64,000 nt of DNA. Origin: Cyanobacteria bacterium P01_D01_bin.156. Its GTDB lineage: Bacteria; Cyanobacteriota; Cyanobacteriia; Phormidesmidales; Phormidesmidaceae. The notes below the pieces were generated by a model. The model made no database searches, was not told the origin of the DNA, and saw nothing but the letters and a program-made list of their open reading frames with translations. Positions 1,146-33,939 of this stretch are shown in pieces. Location of the stretch: the NCBI GenBank assembly GCA_039024555.1, contig JBCCQQ010000001.1:96001-160000 (forward strand). The letters run 5' to 3'. The stretch's first letter is position 1; every line of letters begins with the position of its first letter. The position numbers were made by a program, and so were the translations under genes.

Positions 1146-1240
1146 TGCTTTCTTCGCTCAATCACCTAAATGTCTGGGCAAGAAGCATCGCCCATCCTTA
1201 TACAAGAATCCTCCACAATTTAGCAGAATGAGCAACCTCC

Positions 1241-3247: not shown

Positions 3248-3500
3248 AGCAACCATCCAAATGATGCAAACACTGTTAGCAATGAGTCGAGCGCCTATGG
3301 TGACGCCAGACAGCCATACCACTCTAGCCCAATGCTCTAGCTATGCTCTATCGCTTCAAGGTACGTTAATGAATGAGTAAATCGCAGCAATAAAAAAGAA
3401 GTCATATTCAAATTACTTGCTAAGAAAGGGTTTACGGTTAGTGACACCCTATTCCGGGAAAAATGGAGTCATCAGAACCCGATTTTTTCGCAGTACCGCA

Positions 3501-5006
3501 ATGCACTACGGTGTCACTCCAGCTGAAACTAGTCATCAGCCAACTCCACTCCTTACTCCTCGGCTCGCCTGCTCGCTGGATGGAACCTCTCCCGCAGAGC
3601 GGGAACAGTTGCGCATAAATACATTGGAAGCATTAAGCCTCCTAGGCATAGGTCCTATCCCTGTCTTTGAGGAAGCCGCTCAGAGCGTGTCTCGATTACT
3701 AGCTGCCCCCATTTGTTTAATTAGCATTTTTGACGAGCAACACCAGATTTTCAAAGCCTCCATGGGGCTTTCCAGTCTGGGGCTAATGAATCAATTGGCC
3801 GCTACTCGTGAACTGCCTAAAAATGAAGCATTTGGCACTCAGATCATTGACACTGGCCAATCATTGATGCTGTCCGATGTGAATCAGCATCCCGTTTTCA
3901 GCCAGAGTCTCCTGGTCCAAAAATACGGTGTCCAAGCATATTTGGGAGTTCCCCTGCTCACCTCCGATCGCTGCTGCATAGGCACACTAGAGGTAATGGA
4001 CATTATGCCCAGACAATACACACAGCAAGATTTAGCATTACTAGAGTTAAATGCTCGCTGGGCCATGAGCGAATACGAGAAACAATCTTGGTTAGAAAAC
4101 GGAAAAATCCAACCGAAAGCAAGCTCTGCTTCTTCTGGATCTTCGCCAAAAACAACGACTCAAGAAAAAATTGATACTTTACGCACTCACCTAATTTCTG
4201 ACCTGACTCAAGAGTTACGCAATCCATTAACCGCCATTACGGGCATGGCTAGCATGCTGAGTCGTAAAATTTATGGTCCCCTGACCGAGAAACAACAGGA
4301 ATACGCCAACATTGTTTTGAGCAGCAGCCAAAATCTGTTGACGTTGACCAATGAGATTATGGAACTAGGTGCTCTTGATGAACAACCCAGCAAATTAACA
4401 TTCTCACCAGTAGATATTGAGATGCTCGCTCAACAGAGCTTACAGCCTATCGAAGCAAGTTATCAGGATAAAGATCTAGACTTTAACCTCACCGTTGAAC
4501 CTGGCTCACGCATTTGGGCATTAGATAAACGTATTATCAAACAACTGCTTTACAATCTTATTCGCAGCATGGCGAAAGCATCCACGGAGGGTAGCACTAT
4601 TCGTCTACACGTTTCACGCAAAGATAACCGACTTAACTTAGCCACCTGGGTTTCAAATCCCTGGTTGGGGGAAGATCTTCCCCAGCCAGTCATCACGTGG
4701 GGGCAACATAATCATTTACTCCCTCAGCCGCCTGCATTCGAAACTGCCTACGATTTTGGCATGCCGACAGATATGACACCTGAATCTATTGAGGCAGGGT
4801 CAAACGAATCTTATGAAATTGATAAGCGCCAAGAACTCGGTTTGCTCTTGAGCCAACAGTTAGCAGAAGCCCATGGTGGAGAAATTATTATGCAAGGCTC
4901 TTATAACCATGGATATCGCTATATCGTGAGTTTCCCACAATTTGAAGCCAAGCAATCCACAGCAGATGGTACTGTTCAGCCATCAATGAGTTTTGCCTAT
5001 AGCTAA
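3501..5006 (+). CDS. GAF-domain histidine-kinase-like protein with degenerate H-box
   Basis: GAF (AYLGVPLLTSD..IGTLEVMD), HisKA-like TQELRNPLTAI, HATPase-like LGLLLSQQLAEAHGG. Start uncertain (3417 or 3501). Confidence 0.85.
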   Translation: MHYGVTPAETSHQPTPLLTPRLACSLDGTSPAEREQLRINTLEALSLLGIGPIPVFEEAAQSVSRLLAAPICLISIFDEQHQIFKASMGLSSLGLMNQLAATRELPKNEAFGTQIIDTGQSLMLSDVNQHPVFSQSLLVQKYGVQAYLGVPLLTSDRCCIGTLEVMDIMPRQYTQQDLALLELNARWAMSEYEKQSWLENGKIQPKASSASSGSSPKTTTQEKIDTLRTHLISDLTQELRNPLTAITGMASMLSRKIYGPLTEKQQEYANIVLSSSQNLLTLTNEIMELGALDEQPSKLTFSPVDIEMLAQQSLQPIEASYQDKDLDFNLTVEPGSRIWALDKRIIKQLLYNLIRSMAKASTEGSTIRLHVSRKDNRLNLATWVSNPWLGEDLPQPVITWGQHNHLLPQPPAFETAYDFGMPTDMTPESIEAGSNESYEIDKRQELGLLLSQQLAEAHGGEIIMQGSYNHGYRYIVSFPQFEAKQSTADGTVQPSMSFAYS

Positions 5007-5020
5007 CATCTATCTAACAA

Positions 5021-5072
5021 CTTAATAACAAAAGGGGGCGGCTGAATTCAGCCGCCCCCTTTTGTTATTAAG
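5021..5072. terminator. 52-bp perfect palindrome, likely bidirectional intrinsic terminator
   Basis: CTTAATAACAAAAGGGGGCGGCTGAA|TTCAGCCGCCCCCTTTTGTTATTAAG, 14 bp after the kinase stop; GC stem followed by T-rich tract on both strands. Confidence 0.8.
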
Positions 5073-5644
5073 CTTATCGACAGAACAACATAACTTGAAC
5101 CGTTAGTCAATTCCCGAGGATCCAAGGTCAGCATTTACCGTACCATATGACCTCAACCTCAACGATCAAACATGTACTTTGGTATAAATACCAACAATTT
5201 ACAACAAAGCCTGAACAACCACTGAGACAATATCGTTAAAAAAGACAAGCGATTTAACTGAGCAGGAACCTGCTGTTTTTTGGGTATCCAAAGTATGCAG
5301 GCAAAAACGAGTGATTTCAAGATACCTCTAAATCCTTAGCTCTCTCACTCAGAGTTAATGACTTTAGAAATCTTTTATCGCCTTATCTAACAGGATGAAA
5401 AGTTTAAAGCTAGCTATCTAATAAATAAATACTGGCTTTTAGAAAACCATCCGGACAAAAGGACATATTTATTGCTGATTTTTTCCTGAATTTATCAGCG
5501 TGTTAGCAATTGCTGCCTAGGGTCTCATCGCTTTAATGCTGTTGATGGCCACGGTCCTTACCCAACTTTCCTTAGCCGCCCTGTTGCTTGCAACAAGGTG
5601 GTTGAACAACCTGCCTAATTTGTTTTCATTGGTTTTCAGAAATA

Positions 5645-8437
5645 ATGACAAAGACTAAAAGTTCTAAGGGACTCAGCTGGCAGCTTTGCAAGCCAGTCAT
5701 TGCATCCGCTCTTGCCATCGGCGGTGCATTTAACATGGTGAACCTCGTACTAGCCGAGGGCACTGACGCTGGTACACAAATTACCAACACCGCGACAGCG
5801 ACCTATCGTGACCCAGATGGGACTCCCCAAACCTCTACTTCCAACACCGTTGTTGTTGAAGTTGCAGAGATTGCTGGTATCACCGTTGTTAACACCTCTG
5901 CTGGAGAAGCAGCCACCAATAGCAACGGTAACAGTACTGTTGAGCCGGGTGAAGATGCGGCTTACGTTTTCACCGTGACTAACGTAGGTAACGATGAAAC
6001 GGATATTAGTCTGCCTGCTGTTGCCGACTTTACAGGGCCTGTCGATAGTGTTGTCAGCATTATTGCTGACCTAGATAATGATGGTAATTTTGAGCCATCA
6101 GAAGAGATTACTAGCCGTACTGATTTTGAAAACCTCGCCCCTGGTGCTTCCTTTAAGGTTCAGGTAATCGTCAAAACCTCCACCAGTGCACAGGACGATG
6201 ATATTATCACCGTGCAGTATGGTGACACCCCCGGTGATGGTCAGAACCAACCCTACGACTCCTCGGGTGGTAGTGTATTCACAGATGATAACGACAGTGA
6301 TGATGAAAATAACCTAAATGGTGCCAGTCAAACATCTGAAGAAGCTGGCCCTGAAGCTCCGGCAAACGGCGAACGTGAGGCCAGTGCAACCGGTGAAGTC
6401 ACCATTGGTAAAGAGCCTCTGCAACAGCCTCTAGTCAAATTAGAAAAGGATTTTACTAGTTACACGGCTGGAACCAGCAATGTTAATGATGATCAGCTCA
6501 CATATCAACTTAATGTTGATGTTCTAGACTCAACCAATGATGTTCCCACGGGTAGTGATGCAGAGCCTGCCGACCTACAGCCCATAACTATTAATATTGA
6601 TAGTGGTACGGCTAGGCACGTTTTAATCGCAGATGCCATCCCTGAGAAAACATCTTTGGTGAGTGCATCTGTAACAGGTGATGCAGCCACTGACAGCTGG
6701 GTAGCTGTTTATTCAACGGATGACCCAACCACAGTCAGCGCACTTGAAGCACAGTGGAGCACCACTGACCCAGGTACAGGTGTGAGACGAGTTGGTTTTA
6801 TTGCACCTGTTAATACCGAGATTGAAAGGACAGATCCAGTACTCACTGGATTCTCGATTACGATTGTTGCCGATGGTTATAACAATACAGATGCACCGGT
6901 AACGATTGCTAATATTGCCCAGGTCTTTGGTTCAGGAGCTGATGCGGATGATCCACTAACACCGGAGGATGAAACCCTTAAGTTCCCCGTAATGGATGAG
7001 TCTGGAGATCAAACACCCAGTAACTACGATCCTGCAACGAATACTTACAGTAACTTTGACCCCAACACAACTGATACCTCAGGAGTTGATGAGCCTCCCA
7101 GTGGCTTTACCCCCGGTGATGGCTACATTGATGACCCCACTGACCTGATCACCACTGGCGTCAGCGACAGGATCACCAGCAATGATCCTACTGACCCTGA
7201 AAGACTAGATGGTGGAACCAATGACACTGGCGACGACAACTCTGGTGACGATACGGATGGGAATGGTGAAGCCGTTGTTGTTGAGCTAGTTCCTCCCACA
7301 GAATCTGACTTACTAAACGGACCTGATGGCGCTCCTGATGCAGTTGGTCCCACTGGCCTCAATGATGACTTTACCAACAAGTCTGCGCCCTTCTCTGATG
7401 GCGACCCACCGGTTGTTGAATTTACTAACACCGTGGATAACTCCAGTACCGAAGGTGGTTGGGTCCGTCTAGAGCCTATTACACCTACAGATGCCAACGA
7501 TTTACCTGACGGTACAAAGGCTACCATCATCGCACCTAGTGGTACTCGCGTTGAATATACCTATACGGGTGGTACCTGGGCTAAAACTAACTCAAGCGAT
7601 CCTGACATCATCGTTCAAGTTCAGGCAGATGATGGTACTCCTGGTGGTGACGATGAATTTGACTATGGTGTTGAGGTTGATTTACCCAACGATCCGGCAT
7701 CTGACCCCACTGACCCAACAGTAGAACCAAACAAGATTCATGAACTAGATAGCTTCCCCGTACCCATCCAGGCAACCTTTGCTGGTGCAACTGCTGTCCA
7801 AACTGAAGATACGAATAACGGTGGTAATGGTATCGACAATACCGATATCTCCAATGTTTTGGATAGTTCAACAGTTCAGAACACAACTATCGATCGTGTC
7901 TACACTGGGTTCTTAAAACTGGTTAAGACCGCTCAAGTTGTTCGTGGTGATGGTCCAGAAGTTTCTGGTAACCCTGCACCAGGTAACCACATTCTTTATC
8001 GTGTTACCTACACCAACATCTCTGAAAGTGAAATTGCACCGATGCAGGGCAATGTGCTGCTAACAGCATCTGACCTAGTGATCATTGAGGATGGTACTGA
8101 GCGGGGTTGTTCTCTAGCAGCGTCTGATTCCAATAACTGGGCCTTTGACACCGATGGTAACAGTGAGCTGGATACTCGCCATGTGGCTGGTGCAGTAGAT
8201 ATGACTCACCTAGACAATGGTTCTACAGGTACTGTCTTGTTCTACAGTGGTGGTCCAGATTGTGATGGCACTGGAACAACTGGCAACCCAGACTTTAACC
8301 CAGATACAGCTGTTCAATCGTCTGAGCTCTCGGGCACGTCTTATAACACTGACACCACTAAGTACGCCTTTGACATCGAAGGTGACATTGAGCCCCTAGA
8401 GTCTGGCTACGTTGAATTCGAGCGTCGGATTAATTAA
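5645..8437 (+). CDS. Secreted acidic DUF11/Ig-like repeat protein (putative major filament subunit)
   Basis: Signal peptide ending VLA; N-terminal GTQITNTATATY; DUF11-like motifs (PGEDAAYVFTVTNVGN; LEKDF..LTYQLNV..IADAIP..IANIAQV; LVKTAQ..PGNHILYRVTYTN). Confidence 0.75.
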   Translation: MTKTKSSKGLSWQLCKPVIASALAIGGAFNMVNLVLAEGTDAGTQITNTATATYRDPDGTPQTSTSNTVVVEVAEIAGITVVNTSAGEAATNSNGNSTVEPGEDAAYVFTVTNVGNDETDISLPAVADFTGPVDSVVSIIADLDNDGNFEPSEEITSRTDFENLAPGASFKVQVIVKTSTSAQDDDIITVQYGDTPGDGQNQPYDSSGGSVFTDDNDSDDENNLNGASQTSEEAGPEAPANGEREASATGEVTIGKEPLQQPLVKLEKDFTSYTAGTSNVNDDQLTYQLNVDVLDSTNDVPTGSDAEPADLQPITINIDSGTARHVLIADAIPEKTSLVSASVTGDAATDSWVAVYSTDDPTTVSALEAQWSTTDPGTGVRRVGFIAPVNTEIERTDPVLTGFSITIVADGYNNTDAPVTIANIAQVFGSGADADDPLTPEDETLKFPVMDESGDQTPSNYDPATNTYSNFDPNTTDTSGVDEPPSGFTPGDGYIDDPTDLITTGVSDRITSNDPTDPERLDGGTNDTGDDNSGDDTDGNGEAVVVELVPPTESDLLNGPDGAPDAVGPTGLNDDFTNKSAPFSDGDPPVVEFTNTVDNSSTEGGWVRLEPITPTDANDLPDGTKATIIAPSGTRVEYTYTGGTWAKTNSSDPDIIVQVQADDGTPGGDDEFDYGVEVDLPNDPASDPTDPTVEPNKIHELDSFPVPIQATFAGATAVQTEDTNNGGNGIDNTDISNVLDSSTVQNTTIDRVYTGFLKLVKTAQVVRGDGPEVSGNPAPGNHILYRVTYTNISESEIAPMQGNVLLTASDLVIIEDGTERGCSLAASDSNNWAFDTDGNSELDTRHVAGAVDMTHLDNGSTGTVLFYSGGPDCDGTGTTGNPDFNPDTAVQSSELSGTSYNTDTTKYAFDIEGDIEPLESGYVEFERRIN

Positions 8438-8445
8438 GGCGAATG

Positions 8446-8520
8446 CATGGATAGCGACGGGGCAATCATCCATAGGGCTCCATCGCTATTCATCCTTAAA
8501 TGCCGTTGTTAACAACGGCA
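8446..8520 (+). promoter_or_regulatory. Intercistronic stem-loops after first cluster gene
   Basis: ATGGATAGCGACGGGGC...GCTCCATCGCTATTCAT imperfect stem, then perfect 20-bp palindrome TGCCGTTGTTAACAACGGCA (8501-8520). Confidence 0.55.
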
Positions 8521-8559
8521 AAACACCGAAGAAATCTTTGAAGTTGAACGAGAAAAATT

Positions 8560-9141
8560 ATGATGCAACGTCTTTTTGCAAAGAAACGTCTTTTGTTAGG
8601 TCTAGGAACGTTAGCGCTAATGGGTGCTGTTCCTTTTGCTACTAACCAGCCAGTAATGGCCCAGCTCCAGGAAGTCAAAGAAGCTATTGTACAGGCCGTT
8701 ATCCGTCCTGAGGTTAAGCTCACTTTAGGTGCAGAAAAGCAAATTGTTAGTTTAGACAAAAATGGCCAAGAGAAAATCTCTTGGGAAGCTCTGCAAGGCA
8801 AGGTCACCGTACAACCTGGTGATGTTATTCGCTATACCGTAGATGGTGCGAACTCTGGTGATGTAGAAGCTCAGGGTCTCTCCGTTACCCAGCCTATCCC
8901 TAGCCAGACAAGCTACATTCTAAAGTCTGCATACACTGATAGCAGTGCTGATATTGTCTACAGCATTGATGGTGGTGCAAGCTTTGTAGCTGAGCCCATG
9001 GTTGAAGTCACCCTACCTGACGGAACTGTTGAACTACAGCCTGCTCCTGCTGAAATGTATACCCACATTCAGTGGAACTTTGGTGGTGATTTAGCCTCTG
9101 CTCAATCTGTTAAGGCATCCTACAACGTCAAGGTTAAGTAA
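8560..9141 (+). CDS. Small secreted single-DUF11-domain protein
   Basis: Signal peptide; AEKQIV..VQPGDVIRYTVDGANSG..VTQPIP..YSIDGG..YTHIQW..ASYNVKVK. Confidence 0.8.
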   Translation: MMQRLFAKKRLLLGLGTLALMGAVPFATNQPVMAQLQEVKEAIVQAVIRPEVKLTLGAEKQIVSLDKNGQEKISWEALQGKVTVQPGDVIRYTVDGANSGDVEAQGLSVTQPIPSQTSYILKSAYTDSSADIVYSIDGGASFVAEPMVEVTLPDGTVELQPAPAEMYTHIQWNFGGDLASAQSVKASYNVKVK

Positions 9142-9477: not shown

Positions 9478-11025
9478 TTGAGGCTAAATATGAAGCTATC
9501 CCAGCCACCTAAACCAAAGCCAGCCACTTGGCGCAGATGGGCATATCGCACGGTGAACGTCTTATTGGCAAGCAGCTTATGTCAAGCACCTTTTGCTGCG
9601 ATCGCAAATGCCGAAGAGATTTACAATCGGGCTGATTATAACTATCGAGATGCCGAACGTAACATTGTTCTCGGCGGTACATCTGCAGAAGTTGTTATTG
9701 ATCCAGGAGAGCTGATTGACCCATTGGGTCAAATTCTCGGGTGTAATGGCTCCCTGCTACCTAATTATGAGGGGTTTTCCGTTGCCCTATATGAGCCTGA
9801 TGCCAGTGGCTTAGAGCTAGGCAACATCGTTCCTCTAACTAGAACAGAATTCCCTGACATCGAGAACAACGGAATTTCCGGTGGTAAGGAGCCCAATACC
9901 GAAAATAGCAACCCCTTCTTCTTAACCAATGCGGATGCAGGACAATATAACTTCCTGTTTGATACAGCGACACCTTTAGAAAGCCCCGTTAATGCAGGGT
10001 TAACCCAAACCAGTACAAATGCCCAATATATCTTGGTGGTCAATCCACCAGCAGATTCCGTATTTCCCCAACGACGAATCAAACTTGAACTAACGGACAG
10101 TACAGGTGGCGTTAACAACTCAGTCATTCGCTACACGGCGACAGCGTTAGATGGCATTCCCATCTCTACTAGTGGCGGTTCCCAGGTAAGTGCCACTGTA
10201 GTTGAAATCTTTAATGCAGAAACCCAGGGTCTGAATCTATTCTCTCTAGCTTTAGGAATGGTCATGTGCGAACCTGACCAAATTAGCATTACAAAAACGG
10301 CTGACCGAGCATCGGCCCAACCTGGCGATACGGTTGTCTATCGCTTAGGACTTAGAAACTTAACTGACATTGAATTAGATTCAGTCACTGTTGAAGATTT
10401 ATTGCCTCAGGGATTTCAATTGATTCCAGAGTCAGTAACCGGTGTTCTCAATGAACAAACCGTTGCCCTAGAGGCAGAAGCATCGGGTTCTGAAGTTATC
10501 TTTACAACTCCCACACCGTTACCTGTAGATGAGACCCTCAGTGTTCTCTATGCGACTCGGGTAACACCAGACGCCGTTCGAGGCGATGGTGAGAATTTAG
10601 CATCAGTAAGTGCTGAGCGTAGTGACAATGGTTACTTTGTTCAAGATGGTCCAGCCATCCATCGGCTCGTCATCGATCCAGGTATCGTCAATGACTGCGG
10701 TACTTTGATTGGCCGTGTCTTTATAGATAACAACTTTGACGGAGAACAACAACCCGGTGAAGCTGGCATCCCCAATGCTGTTGTCTTTTTAGACGATGGC
10801 AATCGGATTCTTACCGATGCCGATGGACTATTTTCGGTTACCTGCATGCTCCCAGGTACCCGCAGCGGCGTACTGGACTTTACGAGTCTCCCCGGTTACG
10901 CCCTAGCCCCCAATCTTTACTTTAAAGAACGCAACAGCCAGTCCCGCATGGTGAATATTTCTCCCGGTGGCATGGTGCGCATGAACTTTGGCGTCACGCC
11001 CACGTTCCAGGAGGAAGCTCAGTAA
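9478..11025 (+). CDS. Secreted DUF11 + SdrD-B-like domain protein (putative base adaptor)
   Basis: Signal peptide (ANA|EE); complete DUF11 (ITKTAD..QPGDTVVY..VEDLLPQG..GENLASV); C-terminal GRVFIDNNFDGEQQPGEAGIPNAVV..TDADGLFS; stop overlaps next ATG (TAATG). Confidence 0.8.
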   Translation: MRLNMKLSQPPKPKPATWRRWAYRTVNVLLASSLCQAPFAAIANAEEIYNRADYNYRDAERNIVLGGTSAEVVIDPGELIDPLGQILGCNGSLLPNYEGFSVALYEPDASGLELGNIVPLTRTEFPDIENNGISGGKEPNTENSNPFFLTNADAGQYNFLFDTATPLESPVNAGLTQTSTNAQYILVVNPPADSVFPQRRIKLELTDSTGGVNNSVIRYTATALDGIPISTSGGSQVSATVVEIFNAETQGLNLFSLALGMVMCEPDQISITKTADRASAQPGDTVVYRLGLRNLTDIELDSVTVEDLLPQGFQLIPESVTGVLNEQTVALEAEASGSEVIFTTPTPLPVDETLSVLYATRVTPDAVRGDGENLASVSAERSDNGYFVQDGPAIHRLVIDPGIVNDCGTLIGRVFIDNNFDGEQQPGEAGIPNAVVFLDDGNRILTDADGLFSVTCMLPGTRSGVLDFTSLPGYALAPNLYFKERNSQSRMVNISPGGMVRMNFGVTPTFQEEAQ

Positions 11026-14000
11026 TGAACCCGAATCGTCACTCGAAAATTTACTATTGGAGCATCTTGGCTGGTTCAGTTGCTCTATCAACGGTATCAC
11101 CGGATGGTTGGGCCTATGCCTCTCAGGATATGCCTGAGACCATCGACCCTAACAAAGCTCAGGATGTTTTACCGGAGGAATCAGCCTATGGTAACGCCGC
11201 TGACCTTAGCGTTAGTGCAATACCTGATACACCTCTTGATTCTTCTGTAGATGCTCAGTTTTTGTCATCTCAAACAGGTCCCGAGATTTTGGGGTTACAG
11301 GTTGCCCCTGAAGAGTCCTCTGATAATGATACGGCCACATTAGTCTTTCCTTCCCTAACATCGGGTATTCCTCAATTTTCGGACCCACAGTTAGCCCAGG
11401 CAACAACGACAGCCTTGGCTGAAGCACAGGAAAATCAAACTGATACAGCAGCAGATACAACCGTAGCAGACAACACTGACACAGCGGCATCTAGGTATAT
11501 CGATAACGAACTGCCTAAACTCTCTCCCAACGAAACGAAACTCGAACCATTACCGACTGCTGAGTCAGCCAACATAACTCAAATTGAACCTACTGTTACT
11601 CCCCAGGTTCAGCCCCTGCCTGCTGATAACCCAACGGTTACGAGTCAAGCTACTCCCCTCGAACTCGCAGTAACAGAGAGCGATAAATCTACGACGATAG
11701 AACAAGATGCAACAGATTCTGAAACAGGAACAACCACCGTTCAAGCCTCAGCTGAATCCGTAGCAATAGAGCAGAGTACAATAGCGCCTGAGGAGGAAGC
11801 GACTACCGCTGAGGCTGAACCAGAGATAGCCCAGTCTGTTGCATCTGGAGAAATTGAAATCCTCAACCCCACAGCGGGTAGCGTCGTTGATGTACCTGCA
11901 ATTACCGTTATTGTTCGCTTTCCAGCCACTGCTGACATTCAGTTGCAGATAAATGGTGATTCTGTCGATAACGACCTGATTGGCCGTACTGAATCGAACC
12001 CTACCACTAACCTGGTCACCCAAACTTGGTATGGGGTCCCCTTACAAGAAGGCAGCAACAGCTTAACCGTACTGGATAAGAGTGATGGTAGCCTGGTGCA
12101 ATCCACCACAGTAGAGGTCAGAGGTGCGCCTATCGAGATGACCCTGAGATCGCGAGAATCAAGGGTACCGGCTGATGGGCGTTCAATTGCGACCTTACAG
12201 GGACAATTATTAGACAGCAATGGCAATGTCTCAAACTGGGATACAATCGTCACCCTCAATGCCAGCGATGGTGAGTTTGTTGGTGTTGATTTTGCTCCAG
12301 ATCAGCCTGGGTTTCAGGTAGAAGCCCAGAACGGACGATTTAAGGCAGAACTACAGTCATCTCTAGAGTCTCATATCGTTCAGCTACAGGCAACCACAAA
12401 CGGTTTAGAAGCGTTTAACCAGGTACAGTTTGTAACACCTAAGCGCCCTAGCATTGCCACTGGTATTGTTGACCTTAGATTCGGTGCCAGAGGAACCAAC
12501 TTTTACAGTAGTCTACGAGATTTCTTACCCGAAGATGAGGACAATGATTACGCTCTAGATCTAGATGCCTCATTCTTTACCATGGGGAACGTGGGTGAGT
12601 GGCTCTTAACCAGTGCATTTAATAGCGATCGCCCCTTAAATGAAGATTGTCGAGGTGAAACCTCCCTATTCCGGCAGGGAGCAGGCAGCTGCAACAACCT
12701 ATATCCCGTATACGGTGATGACTCTTCAATCGATGTCACAACTCCATCCACCGACAGACTATATGTTCGACTAGAGCGCACATCTCCTGTAGAAGGTGCA
12801 ACGGTAGACTATGCCATGTGGGGAGACTTCAATACTGAAGAGTTTGCCAATTCATCTCAGTTGTTTACATCCACATCCCGCCAGTTACATGGATTTAAGC
12901 TCAACTATAATCTTGGCAACTTAGCCATTACGGGTCTTTATGGTGACAATATTGAGGGCTTCCAACGCGATACGATTGCTCCCGATGGTACGAGCGGCCT
13001 ATACTTTTTGTCGCGTCGGTTGGTGACCTCTGGCAGTGAACAGGTCTATCTCGAAACAGAAGAGCTGGATAGACCCGGTACTGTGCTCGAAAGAGAGCGC
13101 CTATTTCGTAATACTGATTACGATATTGATTATGATCGCGGCACATTGTTATTTGAAGATCCAGTCACTCAAACTGCGATCGGCGACTTTGGTGAAGTTT
13201 TGCTTCGCCGTATTGTTGTCACCTATCAGTTTGAGGGAGAAAATACAGATACCAATATCATTGCTGGGCGTCTACAGTATAACTTTAACCGCACCCTCAG
13301 CCAAGAATCTTGGCTAGGCACATCTTACCTAACAGAAGATCAGGGCAGTCGTAACTTTACTCTGTTTGGGGCAGATGCTCAATTTGCGTTGGGTAACAAC
13401 AACCGCTTAGTTGCAGAAATTGCCCACTCTGAAAGCGATTTTGATTTGTCTGGTCCCATCAGCGGCTCAGCCTATCGGGTTGAACTAGATGGGGTTGTGA
13501 GTGACTGGTTGAGTGGTAGAGCCTATTGGCGTTCCACCGATGCTGGCTTTACCAATGCGGCAACTACGAGTTTTGTTCCTGGTCAGACTCGGTATGGTGC
13601 CCAGGCCAATGTCAAAGTCAGTCGGAACACCACACTGCGTGCACAGTTTGATCATGAAGATAATGATGGTGTAGCCCCTCGTCCGATTACGGATCTTGAA
13701 GACTTACTGACACCGGGACAAAATCCGGTGCCAGGTTCCCGGGTCGATAACTCATTGACCACCTATTCCCTAGGACTAGCCCAGCGCCTGGGAGATACCA
13801 ATCTAGAATTTGACTGGGTTCATCGCGATCGCACTGACCGCACTAACCCAAGCCAGTTCAATACCAGTTCAGATCAGCTTAGAACACGAGTAACCACCCG
13901 AGTCTCTGACAAGCTCACTCTGCGGGCTCAAAATGAGCTAAATCTTTCATCGGAGAGCGATCCCATTTATCCCAGTCGCACCTATCTAGGACTGGATTGG

Positions 14001-15218
14001 GAAGCACTACCGGGCATTAAAGTGGGACTGGGCCAGGTATTCTACGGCGACAATGGTTTTAGCGATCGCGACTCTTACACTATTTTTGATGTATCTGGCG
14101 AACGCTCCCTAGGGGAAGACACGACCATTCGCGGTCGTTTTAGCAGCGTTGACGGTCAACATCTCGGCGGTGCCATCGGTGTTGAACATGGCTTTAATCT
14201 AGGTCCTGGTCTCCGACTTGATTTAGGCTATGAACGAGTCTTTAACAGTCTTGGCGGCACCGCTTCCGGTAGTCAGTTTAGCCAACCCTTTGCCGTAGGT
14301 ACTGGCGGCTCCTCCGTTGGCACCGTTGACAGCAACACCTATACCCTCGGATTGTCCTACACAGACAATCCCGATTTACAAGCCAGCGCACGGATTGAGC
14401 ATCGCGATTCTTCCCAGAGCAGCAACACGGTACTGAATGCCTCTGCAGTAGGCCGTCTCTCGCCAGCCGTCAGTGCGTTATTTAACTATCAGCTCAATCG
14501 GGCAGCCAACCAGAGCATTAGCAACATTGGTACCACCAGCAACCTCAAACTAGGTCTCGCCTACCGCGATCCTAACGATGATCGACTCAATGCGTTGCTA
14601 CGGTATGAACATCGCATCAATCCAAACACACTGCCAACAAATGCTCTATTTGGCCGCAGTCTTGATACCTCTGAGCATGTATTCTCAGGCGAAGCTCTAT
14701 ATGCCCCCAATTGGCGATGGGAGCTCTACGGAAAATATGCCTTCCGCACCACTCAGACTCGCATTAACCTACCAGCCGATGAGGGCGGTGACTTTGTCTC
14801 CAATAACAACTTACATCTCGCCCAGATGAGGGCCACCTACCGGTTTGACTACAGCTGGGATGTAAGTGCTGAAGCTCGTTGGTTTGGTGGTCTGGGTGAC
14901 TACAACGAGTTGGGGTATGCCCTGGAAGTCGGTTACTATGCTACCCCTGATTTTCGCATCTACGGTGGCTACAGCGGGGGTGGAGCCTACGATGACGACT
15001 TTGGAATAAATCGCTCGGCTAGTGGGTTTTATATTGGTGTCTCCGCCAAAATCAATAGCCTGTTTGATGGCTTTGGTTTACAGGATGTTGCTCCACGACA
15101 ACAGCGGGAGTCTTCTCTAGAGGCTGAGCCAGACGCTCTCTTTTTTGAAGATCCCAGCACCATTCCCTTTCCTACCAATTCCCCTGTAGAGGATGTTTCA
15201 ACTGAGGAGCAAGGGTGA
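11025..15218 (+). CDS. Large predicted outer-membrane beta-barrel protein with N-terminal linker and Ig-like domains
   Basis: Signal peptide; ~250-aa acidic low-complexity linker; invasin-like VPADGRSIATL domain; long C-terminal region of amphipathic strands with aromatic ends; DYDIDYDRGTLLF motif. Confidence 0.75.
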   Translation: MNPNRHSKIYYWSILAGSVALSTVSPDGWAYASQDMPETIDPNKAQDVLPEESAYGNAADLSVSAIPDTPLDSSVDAQFLSSQTGPEILGLQVAPEESSDNDTATLVFPSLTSGIPQFSDPQLAQATTTALAEAQENQTDTAADTTVADNTDTAASRYIDNELPKLSPNETKLEPLPTAESANITQIEPTVTPQVQPLPADNPTVTSQATPLELAVTESDKSTTIEQDATDSETGTTTVQASAESVAIEQSTIAPEEEATTAEAEPEIAQSVASGEIEILNPTAGSVVDVPAITVIVRFPATADIQLQINGDSVDNDLIGRTESNPTTNLVTQTWYGVPLQEGSNSLTVLDKSDGSLVQSTTVEVRGAPIEMTLRSRESRVPADGRSIATLQGQLLDSNGNVSNWDTIVTLNASDGEFVGVDFAPDQPGFQVEAQNGRFKAELQSSLESHIVQLQATTNGLEAFNQVQFVTPKRPSIATGIVDLRFGARGTNFYSSLRDFLPEDEDNDYALDLDASFFTMGNVGEWLLTSAFNSDRPLNEDCRGETSLFRQGAGSCNNLYPVYGDDSSIDVTTPSTDRLYVRLERTSPVEGATVDYAMWGDFNTEEFANSSQLFTSTSRQLHGFKLNYNLGNLAITGLYGDNIEGFQRDTIAPDGTSGLYFLSRRLVTSGSEQVYLETEELDRPGTVLERERLFRNTDYDIDYDRGTLLFEDPVTQTAIGDFGEVLLRRIVVTYQFEGENTDTNIIAGRLQYNFNRTLSQESWLGTSYLTEDQGSRNFTLFGADAQFALGNNNRLVAEIAHSESDFDLSGPISGSAYRVELDGVVSDWLSGRAYWRSTDAGFTNAATTSFVPGQTRYGAQANVKVSRNTTLRAQFDHEDNDGVAPRPITDLEDLLTPGQNPVPGSRVDNSLTTYSLGLAQRLGDTNLEFDWVHRDRTDRTNPSQFNTSSDQLRTRVTTRVSDKLTLRAQNELNLSSESDPIYPSRTYLGLDWEALPGIKVGLGQVFYGDNGFSDRDSYTIFDVSGERSLGEDTTIRGRFSSVDGQHLGGAIGVEHGFNLGPGLRLDLGYERVFNSLGGTASGSQFSQPFAVGTGGSSVGTVDSNTYTLGLSYTDNPDLQASARIEHRDSSQSSNTVLNASAVGRLSPAVSALFNYQLNRAANQSISNIGTTSNLKLGLAYRDPNDDRLNALLRYEHRINPNTLPTNALFGRSLDTSEHVFSGEALYAPNWRWELYGKYAFRTTQTRINLPADEGGDFVSNNNLHLAQMRATYRFDYSWDVSAEARWFGGLGDYNELGYALEVGYYATPDFRIYGGYSGGGAYDDDFGINRSASGFYIGVSAKINSLFDGFGLQDVAPRQQRESSLEAEPDALFFEDPSTIPFPTNSPVEDVSTEEQG

Positions 15219-17517: not shown

Positions 17518-20500
17518 TTGATTATGAAATGGTCTCGTCAACAGCTTAACCACGATAATGCTGGCATCAAGCTGCTTACTAACTCTTTACGGTTAGGGCT
17601 GGGTGCCATGACCTCCGCTGCAAGCCTGTGGTTAGCGTATGGAGCAGTCTCTAGCCAAAGTGCAAATGCGGGACCACTGACCTCCATAACAACAACAACC
17701 CCACCGGCAACAAACAGCTTTATCTACACAGCGGGAGGACAGGAGCATCGATTTGGTCAAGGAAATGATGTGATCCTTCAGAGCGTTACAGATGCCTCAG
17801 GCACCTACTCTCCCGATACAGTAGCTGACCAAGTCATTGTCCGTCGAGTTGACAATGCCAATGTCTCTGGAGAAAAGTGTGGTATATTTGCCGCTCAAAG
17901 TGGTTCTAATGTGCGACATTACGGCCCAACCTATCCACACTTTTCTCCCCAAGATGCCAACGGAAACTGCTCCTATGAAGCAATTCTCAGCGGTTTTAAT
18001 ATTGGTCTTGGTGCCCTCGATTTATTTAGCAACACTCCCTCAGGTGGAGATAATGAATATAACAATGTCGAACGCATTGACTTTATCTTTAATGATGGCA
18101 TCCATGCACCATTTAACTCATCTCTGTTGAACCAGGCAGGCCACATTGTTACCGAGAAAAGTGCCAATAATGCCTACATGATTGCAGCGGTTACGGCTGT
18201 TGATGGGGCTGGCAACCCGACTGCCTATGCCACTCCAGTATGGGTGGCAGGCTATGAGGATACTTACACTCCCGCAGGCTTAACCGTAGTGCGGATGGCT
18301 CAAGTGGGAAGTGCCACTCAGAATGGGTTTTTAACCAGTGACTCCAACTCAGCACCCCATGGCGCACCTAGTAGGAAGGGAGGCCAAGCTGAAAAATTCG
18401 GTGGTGCCTTTGTCACACTCCAAGACATGGGCCTAGCAGCAGGGCAGAAGTATTATGGCTTTTCGTTTATTCCGGCAGACGTAGAGAGTGCTATCGGTAC
18501 TAGCTCCGCTGATTTATTAGATTATACGAGCTTTCCGACTACAACATCGCGGCATGCATCTGGGTATGAGCCGGGTGACGGCGATATGTTTGGGGGGACA
18601 GCGGGTTATTTTATCGCTTATTCCAGCAATAATATTAGCGGTAGTCTGTATGAAGACGACAGCCCTCAGAACAATAGCTTTGACAGTGGTAGCGAGTCGA
18701 AACTCGGTAACAATATTGAGGTAATTCTCTATGGAGATGTCAATGGTAACAACACCTACGATGCTGGGTCTGATACCATTATTGATACCACTGACACCAC
18801 TAATGGAGACTATAGTTTTACCAATATTCCAGAAGGAACCTATGGCATCTATGTCAATACAGCAGATGGTGATATTGCTAGTAATCTTAGTCTAGGTACA
18901 CCTAACAATCTCAGCGTCACTCTCAACGGAAGCGACATTACCAACCAAAACTTTGGTTTTGATTCTACAGTCGTGGGAGGTATCTGCGCTAACCCAATAT
19001 CAGGTCCATTCAACAGTTCCAACTATGCTCTAAATACTCCGCTTCAAGGCTCTCTACCGCTCTCGTTTTATGGCGGCGGCATGTTGTTCGACGCCAACCT
19101 ATCAGGAATCGCTACTTGGAAGGATGGGGTCCAGATACGGAATGATTCTACCGTAGGCCAACAAATCTTCCTGCAGCCCGAGAACGCAAGTGACTACCTC
19201 AACACAAACAACGAGGCTATTTACACCTTTACCTTTCCCAACCCAGTTACAGACCTGACGCTACAGGGGGCTGGGCTCAACAATGAAGATGGCACCACCA
19301 TTTTGCCTAGCTATCAGGGGGTACCCATTCCTACTACCTCCGCTAACTTCAGTGGCTTGAATCCTGTCCCTGGCATGAGGCTGGAAGATGCTGACGGTAA
19401 CGGTGAAAGTGATACTGTCGTTGGCAGCTCGACAGCAGGAGGGGTATCAGTAACTACCAATATTTACACCTTTACGATTCCAGGACCGGTAGACACCCTT
19501 ACTATCGTCTCAGGTAAAGACGATGTAAATAGGAATAGTACTGTCACTATTGGTTTACACTCCTTCGGATTCTGTGGAGATGGCGTTTTAGACTACGGCG
19601 ATGCGCCGGACAGCTATGGGACCAATGCTACGGATGATGGTGGAGAGGGTATTGGTCCTAGCCATGCCATTGTTAGTGGTATTCATTTAGGTACTGCACC
19701 CGATGCGGAGAGTGATGCAGAGACGCCCTTAGATGGTAGCGGTGATGGTGCTGAGGATAATGGGATTACGCTGCCTACGCTAACGGAAGGTGACACCAGC
19801 TATTCCATACCAGCAGCTAATATTAATGCAACCGGCAGTGGTACCCTTCACGCTTGGATTGATTTTAATAAGAGTGGTACGTTTGAGCCAGGTGAACACA
19901 AAAGTGTTGAGGTGATAAGTGGCACTCCAAGTGGTGCGCTGATCTGGAGTGGGATTACAGCGGGAGCGGCTGGTGATACCTATGCTCGATTTAGATTTAC
20001 ATCGGATACTAGCATTACCCTGAATACTCCTGGGGGCGCTGCCGGTGATGGTGAGGTAGAAGATTATCAGGTTGCGATTTCCACATCTGTTTTACCAACC
20101 TTTTCTTGCTCCACAAACGCTAACTTATTCAACACTGGCTACAGTGGCAGCGGTAAAGCCGCTACAGGAACACGCGATCTCAACTGGGATGTCGGGTATA
20201 TCTCCGCTGCTACTGGTTCTCCAGACATTGTTGCAGCACCGAGTAGCATTACAAATTGGGTAGATGCATATGTCACGGGAAGAGTCACAACTGCCTGGGA
20301 CCCTAGTGTGTTTGGACAAGCAGAATGGATTTCCCATGTTAATGATACTGACCATACCGGGCAGAAAGTAGATGTCTTCTATCGGTATCAATTCAATATT
20401 GATCCAGCCGTTACCTTAGACTCTTTTGCCGTACACATGGATTGGATGGCAGATAACTCCATCTGGGAGATTTACGTCAATGGCACACCCCAAAGTGGAA

Positions 20501-23373
20501 ATTTAGGTGACATACCTCAAGATCCAACCAGCCCTTACTTTCACCTAGGCTTCAAACAGGCCAATCGAGCACAAACTGTTTTAACTGAAAACTGGCAACC
20601 TGGGACTAATGAGTTAATTGTCCGGGTTCGCAGTGAACAACCCCTACAAGGATTTGTAGGAGAAATATCAGCCGATGTTCTTTGTATACCTGATTTTGGG
20701 GATGCCCCCGATACTTATGGCACCGATGCTACCGACGATAGCGGCGAAGGGATTGGCCCTAACCACATTATTGTCGGCGGCATCCATTTGGGTACCATCG
20801 CTCCTGATGCTGAAGCCAATGCTGAGACTCCACTAGATGGCACAGGCGATGGCGCTGAGGATGATGGTGTCACTATGCCTGCCTCTATTCAGCCAGGAGA
20901 GACAATTTCTCTGCCCATCACTGTTACTGGCAGCGGTAATTTGACCGCGTGGATTGACTGGAATGGCGATGGCACGTTTGCAGCGGGAGAACAGATTGCC
21001 ACCGACGCAGTCGATGGGGGTACGGGCGATACGGACGGCAACATTGATGGCACCATCACCCTGAGCGTGACTGCACCAGCCGGAGCCACTGTTATCGGTA
21101 ATACGTATGCCCGATTTCGATACAGCTCCGACACAGGGCTGGGGGCAACAGGCGCTGCCAGTGATGGTGAAGTAGAGGATTATCCACTCACTATATCTTT
21201 GCAAGACATTCCTAAAATTCCAGACTTACCGCCAATAACACCGCCAACTCCAGAGATTCCTGACTCTATTTGCGCTCTACCGGGTTCAGATGGCACAGCT
21301 GCTTTGAGTGGTGTACTGAATACTTACTATCCTGGTGTTTCATCAGCGAGTGCTGGGGCAACAACACTTTCTTTAGGACCTATCCATACTGGAGGTAATA
21401 CAACTACCATTGAAAAAGGTGACAAACTGCTGATTATTCAAATGCAGGATGCCGACATTACTTCAACCAATGCTGACACTTACGGTAGTGGCACATCTGG
21501 CACTGCAGCCAGTGGCTCCACAGCACTGAATACCGCTGGATACTATCAGTATGTTGTTGCCGACAGTGCAGTGGGTGCTGCTGGCGGTACATTACAGCTG
21601 GCGGACCCCCTTGCTTTTACTTTTACCCATAGCGATTTCTCAGGTACCTCTGGTCAGCGACGCTTCCAGGTCATTCGCATGCCACAGTACTATGATGCAT
21701 CCATTACAGGTATAGTCACCGCAGCTCCTTGGAATGGTGCTTCCGGTGGTGTGGTGGGTTTGGATGTGGCCAAAACCTTAACGTTTGCTGGCGGTACTAT
21801 CGACGTCAGTGGTCAAGGGTTTCGTGGCGGCGGTGGTCTCAATGTGCTTGGCGATGGAGTGGCCCTACCTTACCCAGGGAACACCGACTACGTTAGTCTT
21901 GCAACCAATCCTTACCATGGCTCTAAGGGAGAAGGTATTGCCGGAACCCCCCGGTACATTCGTAATGATGTAACCACCACAGTCACAGATACCGGTATTG
22001 AAGGCTACCCCAACGGTAGCTTTGGTCGCGGTGCACCCGGTAACGCAGGCGGTGGTAGCACGGACCCGAAATCGTCGGCCAACGCTGCCAATACTGGCGG
22101 CGGCGGCGGTGCCAACGGTGGCTACGGTGGCCATGGGGGCGATTCATGGATTGATACCCATGGCCGCCAACCCATGGGTGGCTTTGGTGGACAGGCATTC
22201 CCTAGCAGTTCTAGCCGGGTAATTATGGGCGGCGGTGGCGGCGCAGGCACTGCTAACAATTCGGCTGGAGGCGTTACTCCATCTGGTGGGGGCGGTGGGG
22301 GCATTGTCATCCTCCGCGCTGGCGAAATTGCAGGTTCTGGAACTATTGAAGCGAACGGCATCCAAGGGGTGGAGCCCACAGGAACTGACGGCGGCGGCGG
22401 TGGCGGTGCTGGCGGTAGTGTAGTGATGCTTTCTGTCGATCCGTCTAGTGCAACAGTGACCATCAATGCTCGAGGGGGCAGAGGTCTTGATTCTGGCTTC
22501 CGTGAACACGGCCCCGGCGGCGGCGGTGGCGGCGGCTATGTCGCCTATGATGGCATTACGCCTACGGTAGATATTGCTGGGGGTGAACCCGGTAATGACC
22601 AAGCCTCTGCTAGTACCAGCGCCGGGGCTGACCCGGCAGCGGACCCCTATGGCGCTACGGCGGGTGGTAGTGGGCTGGCACAGTCCACTACCATCCCTGA
22701 CCAGGGGGTAGAACCTGGTGGAGAATGTCTAGAGCCACAAGTTCTCTTAGTTAAGCGGATCACCGCTATCAATGGTGCTGTCAGTACCAATAATGGTGAC
22801 GATTTGGCGGCTTACATGGATGAAACATCCAATCCATATGATGACAACACTCTGACTACACCAGTTCCAACTCCCCCAGATACAGATCAGTGGCCTAATC
22901 CGAATATGAGTCTAGTCGGGGGTATCCATGGGGGAAATGTTGCATTTGATGATGAGATTGAATACACCATTTATTTTCTCTCTTCTGGAAATACGACTGC
23001 CGAGAATGTTCTCTTCTGTGACTACGTACCTGAGTTTACGAGCTTTCTCCCCAATGCCTACGCTGGCAACAGCGCCAATCCAGACGGTATCGGCATTGAT
23101 CTCAGCGTAGAACTCTTTCGCAACGGGACTACTGATTATCACACCGGAGCTAACGATGGCGACAGCGCCACCTACTTTGCCCCAGGAGTGGACCCGGCAG
23201 CCACTTTCCCCGGCATCGACTGTGAAGGCGATGAAGATAACGACCCGCTGACACCCACCACAAATACCAATAACAATGGCGCTCTAGTAGTGAATCTAGG
23301 AGATTTACCCGACGCTACATCCGACAGTACTGGAGCCTACGGCTATGTACGATTTAGAACACGGGTCAAGTAA
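17518..23373 (+). CDS. Giant mosaic surface protein/adhesin (SdrD-B-like, 2x GEVED, Gly-rich domain, conserved C-terminal DUF11-like domain)
   Basis: Signal peptide (ANA|GP); NISGSLYED..GDYSFTNIPEGTY; two DxGDAP...GEVEDY repeats; GGGGG-rich region; ends AYGYVRFRTRVK. Confidence 0.85.
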   Translation: MIMKWSRQQLNHDNAGIKLLTNSLRLGLGAMTSAASLWLAYGAVSSQSANAGPLTSITTTTPPATNSFIYTAGGQEHRFGQGNDVILQSVTDASGTYSPDTVADQVIVRRVDNANVSGEKCGIFAAQSGSNVRHYGPTYPHFSPQDANGNCSYEAILSGFNIGLGALDLFSNTPSGGDNEYNNVERIDFIFNDGIHAPFNSSLLNQAGHIVTEKSANNAYMIAAVTAVDGAGNPTAYATPVWVAGYEDTYTPAGLTVVRMAQVGSATQNGFLTSDSNSAPHGAPSRKGGQAEKFGGAFVTLQDMGLAAGQKYYGFSFIPADVESAIGTSSADLLDYTSFPTTTSRHASGYEPGDGDMFGGTAGYFIAYSSNNISGSLYEDDSPQNNSFDSGSESKLGNNIEVILYGDVNGNNTYDAGSDTIIDTTDTTNGDYSFTNIPEGTYGIYVNTADGDIASNLSLGTPNNLSVTLNGSDITNQNFGFDSTVVGGICANPISGPFNSSNYALNTPLQGSLPLSFYGGGMLFDANLSGIATWKDGVQIRNDSTVGQQIFLQPENASDYLNTNNEAIYTFTFPNPVTDLTLQGAGLNNEDGTTILPSYQGVPIPTTSANFSGLNPVPGMRLEDADGNGESDTVVGSSTAGGVSVTTNIYTFTIPGPVDTLTIVSGKDDVNRNSTVTIGLHSFGFCGDGVLDYGDAPDSYGTNATDDGGEGIGPSHAIVSGIHLGTAPDAESDAETPLDGSGDGAEDNGITLPTLTEGDTSYSIPAANINATGSGTLHAWIDFNKSGTFEPGEHKSVEVISGTPSGALIWSGITAGAAGDTYARFRFTSDTSITLNTPGGAAGDGEVEDYQVAISTSVLPTFSCSTNANLFNTGYSGSGKAATGTRDLNWDVGYISAATGSPDIVAAPSSITNWVDAYVTGRVTTAWDPSVFGQAEWISHVNDTDHTGQKVDVFYRYQFNIDPAVTLDSFAVHMDWMADNSIWEIYVNGTPQSGNLGDIPQDPTSPYFHLGFKQANRAQTVLTENWQPGTNELIVRVRSEQPLQGFVGEISADVLCIPDFGDAPDTYGTDATDDSGEGIGPNHIIVGGIHLGTIAPDAEANAETPLDGTGDGAEDDGVTMPASIQPGETISLPITVTGSGNLTAWIDWNGDGTFAAGEQIATDAVDGGTGDTDGNIDGTITLSVTAPAGATVIGNTYARFRYSSDTGLGATGAASDGEVEDYPLTISLQDIPKIPDLPPITPPTPEIPDSICALPGSDGTAALSGVLNTYYPGVSSASAGATTLSLGPIHTGGNTTTIEKGDKLLIIQMQDADITSTNADTYGSGTSGTAASGSTALNTAGYYQYVVADSAVGAAGGTLQLADPLAFTFTHSDFSGTSGQRRFQVIRMPQYYDASITGIVTAAPWNGASGGVVGLDVAKTLTFAGGTIDVSGQGFRGGGGLNVLGDGVALPYPGNTDYVSLATNPYHGSKGEGIAGTPRYIRNDVTTTVTDTGIEGYPNGSFGRGAPGNAGGGSTDPKSSANAANTGGGGGANGGYGGHGGDSWIDTHGRQPMGGFGGQAFPSSSSRVIMGGGGGAGTANNSAGGVTPSGGGGGGIVILRAGEIAGSGTIEANGIQGVEPTGTDGGGGGGAGGSVVMLSVDPSSATVTINARGGRGLDSGFREHGPGGGGGGGYVAYDGITPTVDIAGGEPGNDQASASTSAGADPAADPYGATAGGSGLAQSTTIPDQGVEPGGECLEPQVLLVKRITAINGAVSTNNGDDLAAYMDETSNPYDDNTLTTPVPTPPDTDQWPNPNMSLVGGIHGGNVAFDDEIEYTIYFLSSGNTTAENVLFCDYVPEFTSFLPNAYAGNSANPDGIGIDLSVELFRNGTTDYHTGANDGDSATYFAPGVDPAATFPGIDCEGDEDNDPLTPTTNTNNNGALVVNLGDLPDATSDSTGAYGYVRFRTRVK

Positions 23374-33145: not shown

Positions 33146-33157
33146 GGGAGTAGCGCG

Positions 33158-33185
33158 TTCGGAATTAGGAATTTGGAATTCAGAA
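33158..33185. repeat. Heptamer tandem repeat (STRR-type)
   Basis: TTCGGAA TTAGGAA TTTGGAA TTCAGAA. Confidence 0.7.
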
Positions 33186-33201
33186 ATTAAGGTCCTGAAG
33201 A

Positions 33202-33927: not shown

Positions 33928-33939
33928 ACCTCAACTTAG

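Follow-up and report, generated by a model that had tools for sequence, protein, structure and literature searches.

Conserved residues, natural fusions and models point to a naturally split isopeptide domain in the major subunit of a putative cyanobacterial surface fibre

We analysed a window of 64,000 nucleotides (nt) from Cyanobacteria bacterium P01_D01_bin.156 (GenBank assembly GCA_039024555.1, contig JBCCQQ010000001.1, positions 96,001 to 160,000 of the forward strand), in which an operon begins with an open reading frame at 5645-8437 (plus strand; 930 residues, predicted to be secreted), hereafter the major subunit. We consider it likely that this protein forms the shaft of a fibre on the surface of its diderm host, its N-terminal hairpin completing the acceptor domain of the next subunit, where Glu815 would catalyse a bond between Lys761 and Asn48. 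According to the mechanism we propose, the subunit is exported and its signal peptide removed, whereupon the hairpin of one subunit would complete the last domain of another to give a whole CnaA/CLIPPER-type beta-sandwich. The buried Glu815 would then catalyse an amide bond from acceptor Lys761 to donor Asn48 with loss of ammonia, and repetition of this step would produce a covalent chain with no sortase. The tip would be formed by an adhesin, which brings only an acceptor; a shaft of presumably many major subunits, each with both halves, would follow, and a donor-only adaptor would make up the base, where a large barrel protein would hold it.

An initial annotation of this DNA had proposed such a joining of split domains from a handful of motifs, each of which occurs once in the protein. 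The Lys/Asp/Asn pattern it had described for an internal domain is present as LEKDF (residues 266-270, nt 6440-6454, with Lys268), IADAIP (residues 328-333, nt 6626-6643, with Asp330) and IANIA (residues 421-425, nt 6905-6919, with Asn423), all within a match to DUF7925 (PF25546; 150.7 bits, cut-off 26.5, profile positions 2-185 of 185). The last domain was said to keep a lysine and an acid, and these are found in LVKTAQ (residues 759-764, nt 7919-7936, with Lys761) and VIIEDG (residues 812-817, nt 8078-8095, with Glu815 and Asp816); the N-terminal motif ITNTA indeed occupies residues 46-50 (nt 5780-5794, with Asn48). The full-length model (mean predicted local distance difference test score, pLDDT, 76.7; predicted template modelling score, pTM, 0.51) consists of an N-terminal hairpin and four beta-sandwich domains, with flexible stretches at residues 221-241 and 503-541. 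The signal peptide appears to end at Ala37, an alanine invariant in 53/53 sequences, and the pLDDT is low for residues 1-38; the mature chain would thus begin ten residues ahead of Asn48. At the other end the protein finishes with FERRIN and a stop, 5 residues past Phe925, and a C-terminal wall-sorting tail is absent, the protein ending at its last strand. Among named proteins the nearest relatives are cyanobacterial, from Leptothoe (71% identity) and, in large number, from Nostoc (about 39%), and a search of the host genome gave no paralog of the major subunit.

DUF7925 is listed as CnaA-like with a predicted bond within one chain (Lys264, Asp326 and Asn415 of Q8YS00, a Nostoc PCC 7120 protein; Costa and colleagues, PMC12617251 Table 1), and the spacing of Lys268, Asp330 and Asn423 resembles that of Q8YS00. 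The internal bond of DUF7925 is already predicted in print, in the tabulated part of that paper. In domain 1 of the major subunit, by comparison, we saw no Lys/acid/Asn triad and no conserved lysine among the 34 relatives described below.

Relatives were chosen by their match to PF25546 alone, a selection thus blind to both ends of the protein. Matches occur in 33 of the 301 cyanobacterial genomes searched, and 34 of the 36 non-self matches make up the set, two partial matches at contig ends of one genome (G175) being excluded. At 23-36% identity to the major subunit, all 34 relatives possess the hairpin, and Asn48, Lys761 and Glu815 are each conserved in 34/34, whereas the residues of the internal triad are retained in 32 (Lys268), 33 (Asp330) and 33 (Asn423) of the 34. 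Of 14 lysines in the mature protein, two (Lys268 and Lys761) are conserved in at least 90% of relatives; asparagine conservation is by itself weaker evidence, as 15 of 61 asparagines reach this level. In an overlapping further set Asn48, Lys761, Glu815 and also Tyr785 are each present in 72/72. Moreover, 12 short relatives that lack both the acidic linker and domain 2 retain the split triad, as do two proteins (a paralog in locus L006, and L104) in which all three residues of the internal triad have been lost together.

A profile of the donor alone recovered 725 representatives with E ≤ 0.001. Among the best 150 of these matches, 87 hold an acceptor and the other 63 have no acceptor match, 55 of the latter being shorter than 500 residues. 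The acceptor lysine is present in 87/87 and an acid in 87/87 (Glu in 81, Asp in 6), and the donor asparagine is found in 86 of the 87 (84 by pattern and 2 more by eye). The annotation had left the acid within VIIEDG unspecified; the predicted catalytic residue is Glu815 rather than Asp816, because the former is conserved in 34/34 relatives and the latter in 24/34, and Asp816 was dropped as a candidate. The I-x-E of Glu815 parallels the I-x-D of Asp330, and hhalign aligns Glu815 with the Asp of the DUF11 domain of the adaptor (probability 62).

The strongest evidence that the two ends form one domain comes from natural fusions. A genome scan yielded 80 loci; the order is normal in 72, and in 4 the acceptor is followed by the donor in one chain. 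Two of these fused loci come from Arsenicibacter genomes, one from Runella defluvii and one from an uncultured bacterium; three of the four are from Bacteroidota. At the junction the final acceptor strand continues into the hairpin with zero linker, and Lys, Glu and Asn are retained in 4/4; for instance, in P0229 from an uncultured Arsenicibacter the hairpin directly follows the acceptor. Only in such fusions do all three bond residues lie within one contiguous domain, the Asn strand being N-terminal elsewhere. In the Runella protein a DUF7927 isopeptide-domain profile crosses the junction (E 1.5e-4, under its cut-off). In Arsenicibacter the parts of the major subunit are circularly permuted, the order being domain 3, acceptor, donor, domain 1 and DUF7925, and the DUF7925 of P0229 is without its triad. 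In R. defluvii, domain 3, acceptor and donor lie inside a 2900-residue protein with a type IX secretion tail. The fused genes were probably acquired from cyanobacteria, and on sequence grounds they would represent the head-to-tail joint frozen within one chain.

The predicted structure of the acceptor is consistent with this reading. Its model aligns with the CLIPPER structure 9IFR (Z 6.5, root-mean-square deviation (rmsd) 2.2, 91 residues aligned) and with the Jo.In complex (PDB 5MKC; Z 5.7, rmsd 2.8, 102 aligned), and the ESM Atlas clusters nearest to it carry DUF11 names or no name. Alignments to solved CnaA isopeptide domains of pilins begin 4 to 6 residues before the known lysine and stop 10-12 residues before the known asparagine: RrgB is aligned over 187-307 (Lys193, Asn318), SpaD over 182-289 (Lys187, Asn299) and GBS104 over 182-680 (Lys188, Asn692), the residue positions being those of PMC12617251 Table 1. 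That these alignments end before the asparagine supports the earlier claim of a last domain lacking the Asn strand. If the first strand is ungapped, the known lysines of SpaD and GBS104 would fall on Lys761.

Residues 752-930 and 38-77 were predicted to form a complex with a score of 0.85, compared with 0.00 for the best of 3 controls; the mark of this test is reached by 116/157 solved complexes versus 2/215 mismatched pairs, and because of likeness to solved domains the pass speaks for complementarity and register, not for binding in the cell. The runs share at least 92% of contacts, with a partner pLDDT of at least 78. In the modelled complex the first donor strand pairs with residues 808-815 (812:53, 813:52, 814:51), a register that by extrapolation would set Glu815 opposite Ala50, two residues from Asn48, while the second donor strand pairs with the strand of Lys761, which lies against residues 66-69. 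In autocatalytic isopeptide domains (CnaA/CnaB) the three side chains meet in a buried pocket near an aromatic residue; here the strand register would suit such a pocket, and Lys761, Tyr785, Glu815 and Asn48 all belong to the interface, with 816 not listed. Taken together, conservation, docking register, fusions and the one-half operon partners described below support the view that the N-terminal hairpin completes the last domain. That part of the initial proposal is supported, whereas the covalent bond and the polymer are inferred. The donor, which would supply the two final strands of a CnaA/CLIPPER-type fold, is a two-strand hairpin of about 40 residues rather than a single Tag-like strand.

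The motifs might instead be generic beta-strand words and the two ends unrelated. The motifs are short, many asparagines are conserved (15 of 61), and sequence searches of solved structures with the complete protein, with the acceptor and with the donor gave no significant match. Nevertheless, the zero-linker fusions in four loci, the complex prediction and the lysine conservation largely refute such a reading, and we give it next to no credence. Foldseek with the full-length model returned generic multi-Ig proteins only, at a template modelling score of about 0.1, and no filament. In a profile-profile comparison the acceptor showed no significant similarity to DUF7925.

The order major subunit, small protein, adaptor, barrel protein, optional beta-helix/OmpA protein and adhesin is kept in 16 whole loci, with a tandem major subunit in L006 as the exception. 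In that locus (930-6880) a small gene is flanked by two major-subunit genes, the first of which is without the internal triad and has the split triad. Directly downstream of the major subunit, the small protein aligns its Gln111 with Glu815, and Lys and acid occur together in 0/32 of its relatives; the acid site is Gln in 30/32, and the other 2 (L002, L008) have Asp there and Leu at the lysine site. It thus seems to have two different ways of being unreactive, and on this residue pattern we propose it as a candidate for a protein that reversibly caps or chaperones donor hairpins.

The adaptor is a candidate base subunit. Its hairpin profile matches the major-subunit donor (probability 96.8), and its DUF11 domain is complete, with Lys273, Asp307 and Asn373; the donor asparagine and the internal triad are each kept in 16/16 relatives, which have no acceptor end. 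The adhesin-like proteins present the opposite half. Among 18 of them, picked by similarity to the adhesin ends in the window, the acceptor has Lys in 18/18 and Asp in 18/18. The window has three alternative genes of this type, and part of adhesin-like protein 1 resembles the AgmC N-terminal domain (NF047640), its 120 bits falling short of the cut-off of 275. Since adhesins would bring only an acceptor and adaptors only a donor, pairing between chains is required. A hybrid protein, P0266 from Almyronema epifaneia (1353 residues), combines a major-type donor hairpin, GEVED and beta-helix regions and an adhesin-type acceptor, and is a candidate adhesive subunit inside the shaft.

The gene for the 1397-residue protein is present in 16/16 operon loci. 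Its product is probably an outer-membrane barrel that would act as assembly or anchoring platform, and we offer as a guess that Anabaena all3289 (1289 residues; PMC9705863) is its counterpart. Relatives of this protein adjoin giant DUF11 adhesins in Proteobacteria: in four loci (L034, L036, L037, L038) the gene for the barrel relative comes after that for a single giant adhesin (DUF11 or SdrD_B) of 2600 to more than 6000 residues, whose C-terminal tail matches the C-terminal half of the adaptor (E 1e-15 to 1e-22). The stalk of these adhesins is a single long polypeptide of whole domains, and neither the donor nor the acceptor profile has a match in the four loci. Locus L035 is not part of the analysis.

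Several observations weigh against the reading preferred here. The bond, the polymer and the fibre are deduced from sequences and models, and the relative sets are kin and overlap, so that their counts are not independent. No PF01345 (DUF11) match was found in Pfam for the major subunit or any of the 31 acceptor domains listed, and profile-profile comparison of the donor with complete domains was not significant (probability <1). The structural Z scores are middling (5.4-6.5) and unrelated sandwiches rank as high as the isopeptide domains or above them (TTHA1873 at Z 7.2; adaptin mu up to 7.8), so the modelled fold lends support without settling the matter. Two parts of a single fold are apt to pass such a complex test because they resemble solved domains, and the register is known at strand level only. 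Every CnaA-like family in PMC12617251 Table 1 has Asp as its acid, while the acceptors here mostly have Glu, and some DUF11 domains are without the bond (PMC12617251). Lastly, P0211 has Ser in place of Asn48 yet retains the acceptor Lys and Glu.

The Glu in place of the usual Asp and the Ser of P0211 could be taken to mean that the hairpin complements the acceptor non-covalently, or that the bond is slow and partial, with Lys, Glu and Asn kept as polar residues of a buried network. Strand complementation by itself may hold subunits firmly together, as oligomers of the BsaA mutant N35A are still stable in sodium dodecyl sulphate unless heated (bioRxiv 10.1101/2024.11.04.621531). We nonetheless regard this as unlikely. 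The small protein shares the fold and the operon but lacks the Lys and acid pair, so the fold does not need the reactive residues, and domain 1 likewise does without a conserved lysine; moreover, the usual Asp does serve as acid in the 6 of 87 acceptors and in all 18 adhesin acceptors mentioned above.

If Lys761 does react with an asparagine, the residues might be others: Asn67 in the S-N motif of the second donor strand or Asn930 at the C-terminus could take the place of Asn48, or Asp816 that of Glu815. Asn67 is conserved in 34/34 and 72/72 major subunits and is a strand neighbour of Lys761 in the complex. Adaptor donors, however, have the first Asn in 16/16 and an S/T-N second motif in 7/16, and the bonded Asn806 of 9IFR sits 22 residues ahead of the end of its domain, like Asn48. 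Asn930 is conserved in 24/34 relatives, as is Asp816, and was dropped as the bond asparagine; we judge these variants very improbable and retain the Lys761-Asn48 pair with Glu815. In the chain sequence of 9IFR itself, the Asp of L-N-D-T-L follows the Lys by 34 residues and the published Lys715 and Asp748 differ by 33, which is probably a numbering slip of one.

Two stem-loops follow the stop of the major-subunit gene (z -4.7; 0/200 shuffles equally stable). With a simple block shuffle, z ≤ -2 was obtained after the stop in 28/40 relatives versus 1/40 inside the gene, counted over the first 40 of the 72 loci with one uncomputable row scored as a miss. Promoter and terminator scans gave counts at chance level, and the stem-loops were not called as terminators. 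No RNA data set is listed among the sequencing runs. In other fimbrial operons the first gene is made in excess, and by this analogy the stem-loops fit the same arrangement here.

This bears on whether the hairpin closes on its own last domain in a covalent ring, or whether each appendage holds one or a few major subunits, with no long homopolymer. The flexible stretches and the pTM leave the domain arrangement free, the complex prediction does not separate cis from trans, and no fibre has been seen. Conversely, acceptor-only adhesins and donor-only adaptors need pairing in trans, the 12 short relatives consist of three domains almost without linkers, which makes ring closure hard, and the stem-loops fit a first gene in excess. 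A ring or short stalk is therefore an improbable outcome in our view, and a shaft of successive major subunits is preferred.

The annotation had also predicted that no sortase would be needed, and PF04203 indeed has 0 matches in this 99.08%-complete genome, a control search being positive in 3/14 genomes. Likewise, 0 matches were found to the usher (PF00577; control positive in E. coli) and to the PapD-type chaperone (PF00345; control positive in 2/14 genomes).

The closest precedent is BsaA of Clostridium perfringens, for which models and mutants support a bond from donor Asn35 to acceptor Lys74 with Glu56 (bioRxiv 10.1101/2024.11.04.621531); by analogy, the chemistry between chains proposed here has precedent there. 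In both, an N-terminal donor enters the next subunit, the donor Asn, acceptor Lys and Glu would form an autocatalytic bond, and no sortase takes part; the exchange-and-lock arrangement of BsaA is found here as conserved residues and a predicted register. BsaA, however, belongs to the TasA family, has one domain and comes from a monoderm; its donor is a single strand of 11 residues and it undergoes SipW processing, whereas the major subunit has four domains, a two-strand hairpin, a CnaA/CLIPPER-like fold, a diderm host and putative dedicated tip, base and barrel proteins. No Pfam or NCBIfam match to the TasA/camelysin family was found at E up to 0.1, and the major subunit is not a BsaA/TasA member. 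With CLIPPER/DUF11 (PF01345, 9IFR) and DUF7925 its last domain appears to share the fold, a first-strand Lys, an acid after the second strand and an Asn on the second-last strand, but their bonds form within one chain (PMC12617251), whereas here the last domain is split between the protein ends and its acid is mostly Glu. Donor strands and operons each have 0 occurrences in the portion of PMC12617251 covered.

Chaperone-usher pili (Fim, Pap) have single-strand, non-covalent joints (PMC13721041). The strand complementation between subunits that typifies them is predicted here too, with two strands, and despite the similar layout the absence of usher and PapD matches argues against membership. 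Sortase pili are covalent chains of Cna domains with internal isopeptide bonds, and the fibre proposed here would resemble them in this, but in them an enzyme joins a C-terminal Thr to Lys (PMC13721041), and neither a sortase match nor a sorting tail occurs here. Archaeal thread filaments combine donor-strand complementation with an inter-subunit bond of a different type (PMC9715654). A-ENA fibres cross-link in a helical fold. Haloarchaeal tafi (PMC11821415), the Chloroflexota DUF11 hook (PMC13319060) and B. cereus CapP (PMC13082335) were considered and set aside as different systems.

Jo/In, SpyTag and SnoopTag are split isopeptide domains whose halves react on contact. They were cut by hand, whereas the split proposed here is natural and runs head to tail in one gene. 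The annotation had drawn a Tag/Catcher analogy; the CnaA-like fold makes Jo/In a closer counterpart than SpyTag.

A literature search, with most subscription papers outside its coverage, found no description of the operon or of a split DUF11 pilus. We put at about even the chance that these operons encode an undescribed class of diderm pili, covalent polymers that need neither sortase nor usher. All joints, whether between tip and shaft, within the shaft or between shaft and base, would be split CnaA/CLIPPER domains with a self-made Lys-Asn bond; the small acid-less protein would be an inverted chaperone capping the donor hairpin until the barrel is reached, and the fibre would be a polymerised counterpart of the giant DUF11 adhesins that, as single chains, use a related barrel in Proteobacteria. 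Covalently polymerised pili are known from monoderms, in which a sortase joins the subunits, and diderm donor-strand pili are non-covalent; a self-locking diderm fibre would join both designs. It would also raise the question of how the periplasm restrains an irreversible reaction and how assembly proceeds in order from the tip to the base; a role of the small acid-less protein in this is a possible answer that can be tested. The cyanobacterial genomes with the system (33 of 301) include large filamentous genera, in which it might contribute to adhesion and to the formation of mats. Each operon offers three natural pairs of donor and acceptor as candidates for protein ligation, which, if the bond forms, would be a source of natural Tag/Catcher pairs.

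Table 1. Features of the major subunit, its operon and the fused loci; positions are those of the window except in the last row.
Feature	Position	Strand	Basis or remark
Predicted signal peptide, residues 1-37	5645..5755	+	V-L-A end; read from sequence
Donor beta-hairpin, residues 38-77	5756..5875	+	modelled strands 45-55 and 61-72
Asn48 codon	5786-5788	+	first donor strand
Asn67 codon	5843-5845	+	second conserved donor Asn
Domain 1, Ig-like, DUF11-like	5876..6412	+	model; hhalign to adaptor DUF11 profile, probability 54
Domain 2, DUF7925 (PF25546), complete CnaA-like	6434..7027	+	Pfam match
Predicted intramolecular triad of domain 2	Lys268 (6446), Asp330 (6632), Asn423 (6911)	+	
Acidic low-confidence linker	7028..7273	+	pLDDT <50 over 503-541
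Domain 3, Ig-like	7274..7897	+	model; accompanies acceptor in every natural fusion
Acceptor domain, residues 752-930, CnaA/CLIPPER-like without last two strands	7898..8437	+	pLDDT 82 when modelled alone
Acceptor codons	Lys761 7925-7927, Tyr785 7997-7999, Glu815 8087-8089, stop 8435-8437	+	
Two RNA stem-loops	8447..8520	+	directly 3' of major-subunit stop; without T run
Small truncated DUF11 protein, 193 residues	8560..9141	+	TIGR01451 match; acceptor-shaped, Gln at acid site
Adaptor, 515 residues	9478..11025	+	Pfam; N-terminal donor hairpin with Asn50, DUF11 domain, SdrD_B-like tail
1397-residue protein	11025..15218	+	weak Pfam matches only
Beta-helix and OmpA-domain protein, 725 residues	15215..17392	+	Pfam; in 5/16 operon loci
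Adhesin-like protein 1, 1951 residues, GEVED domains	17518..23373	+	C-terminal acceptor with Lys and Asp; candidate tip
Adhesin-like protein 2, 1541 residues	23475..28100	+	same acceptor end
Adhesin-like protein 3, 1155 residues	28235..31702	-	same acceptor end; opposite strand
Fused loci	L039; L040 match 6001-8973; L042 4405-9843; L044 3061-11856		acceptor then donor

Another DUF11 protein, with an open frame of 327 residues, lies elsewhere in the genome (G000:C17:13825-14151). Just upstream of the operon, window positions 1241-5006 hold a minus-strand gene that by eye resembles a Ser/Thr kinase, together with a GAF histidine kinase. Beyond the last adhesin gene (32051-35664) there are three minus-strand genes resembling, again by eye, substrate-binding and von Willebrand A proteins.

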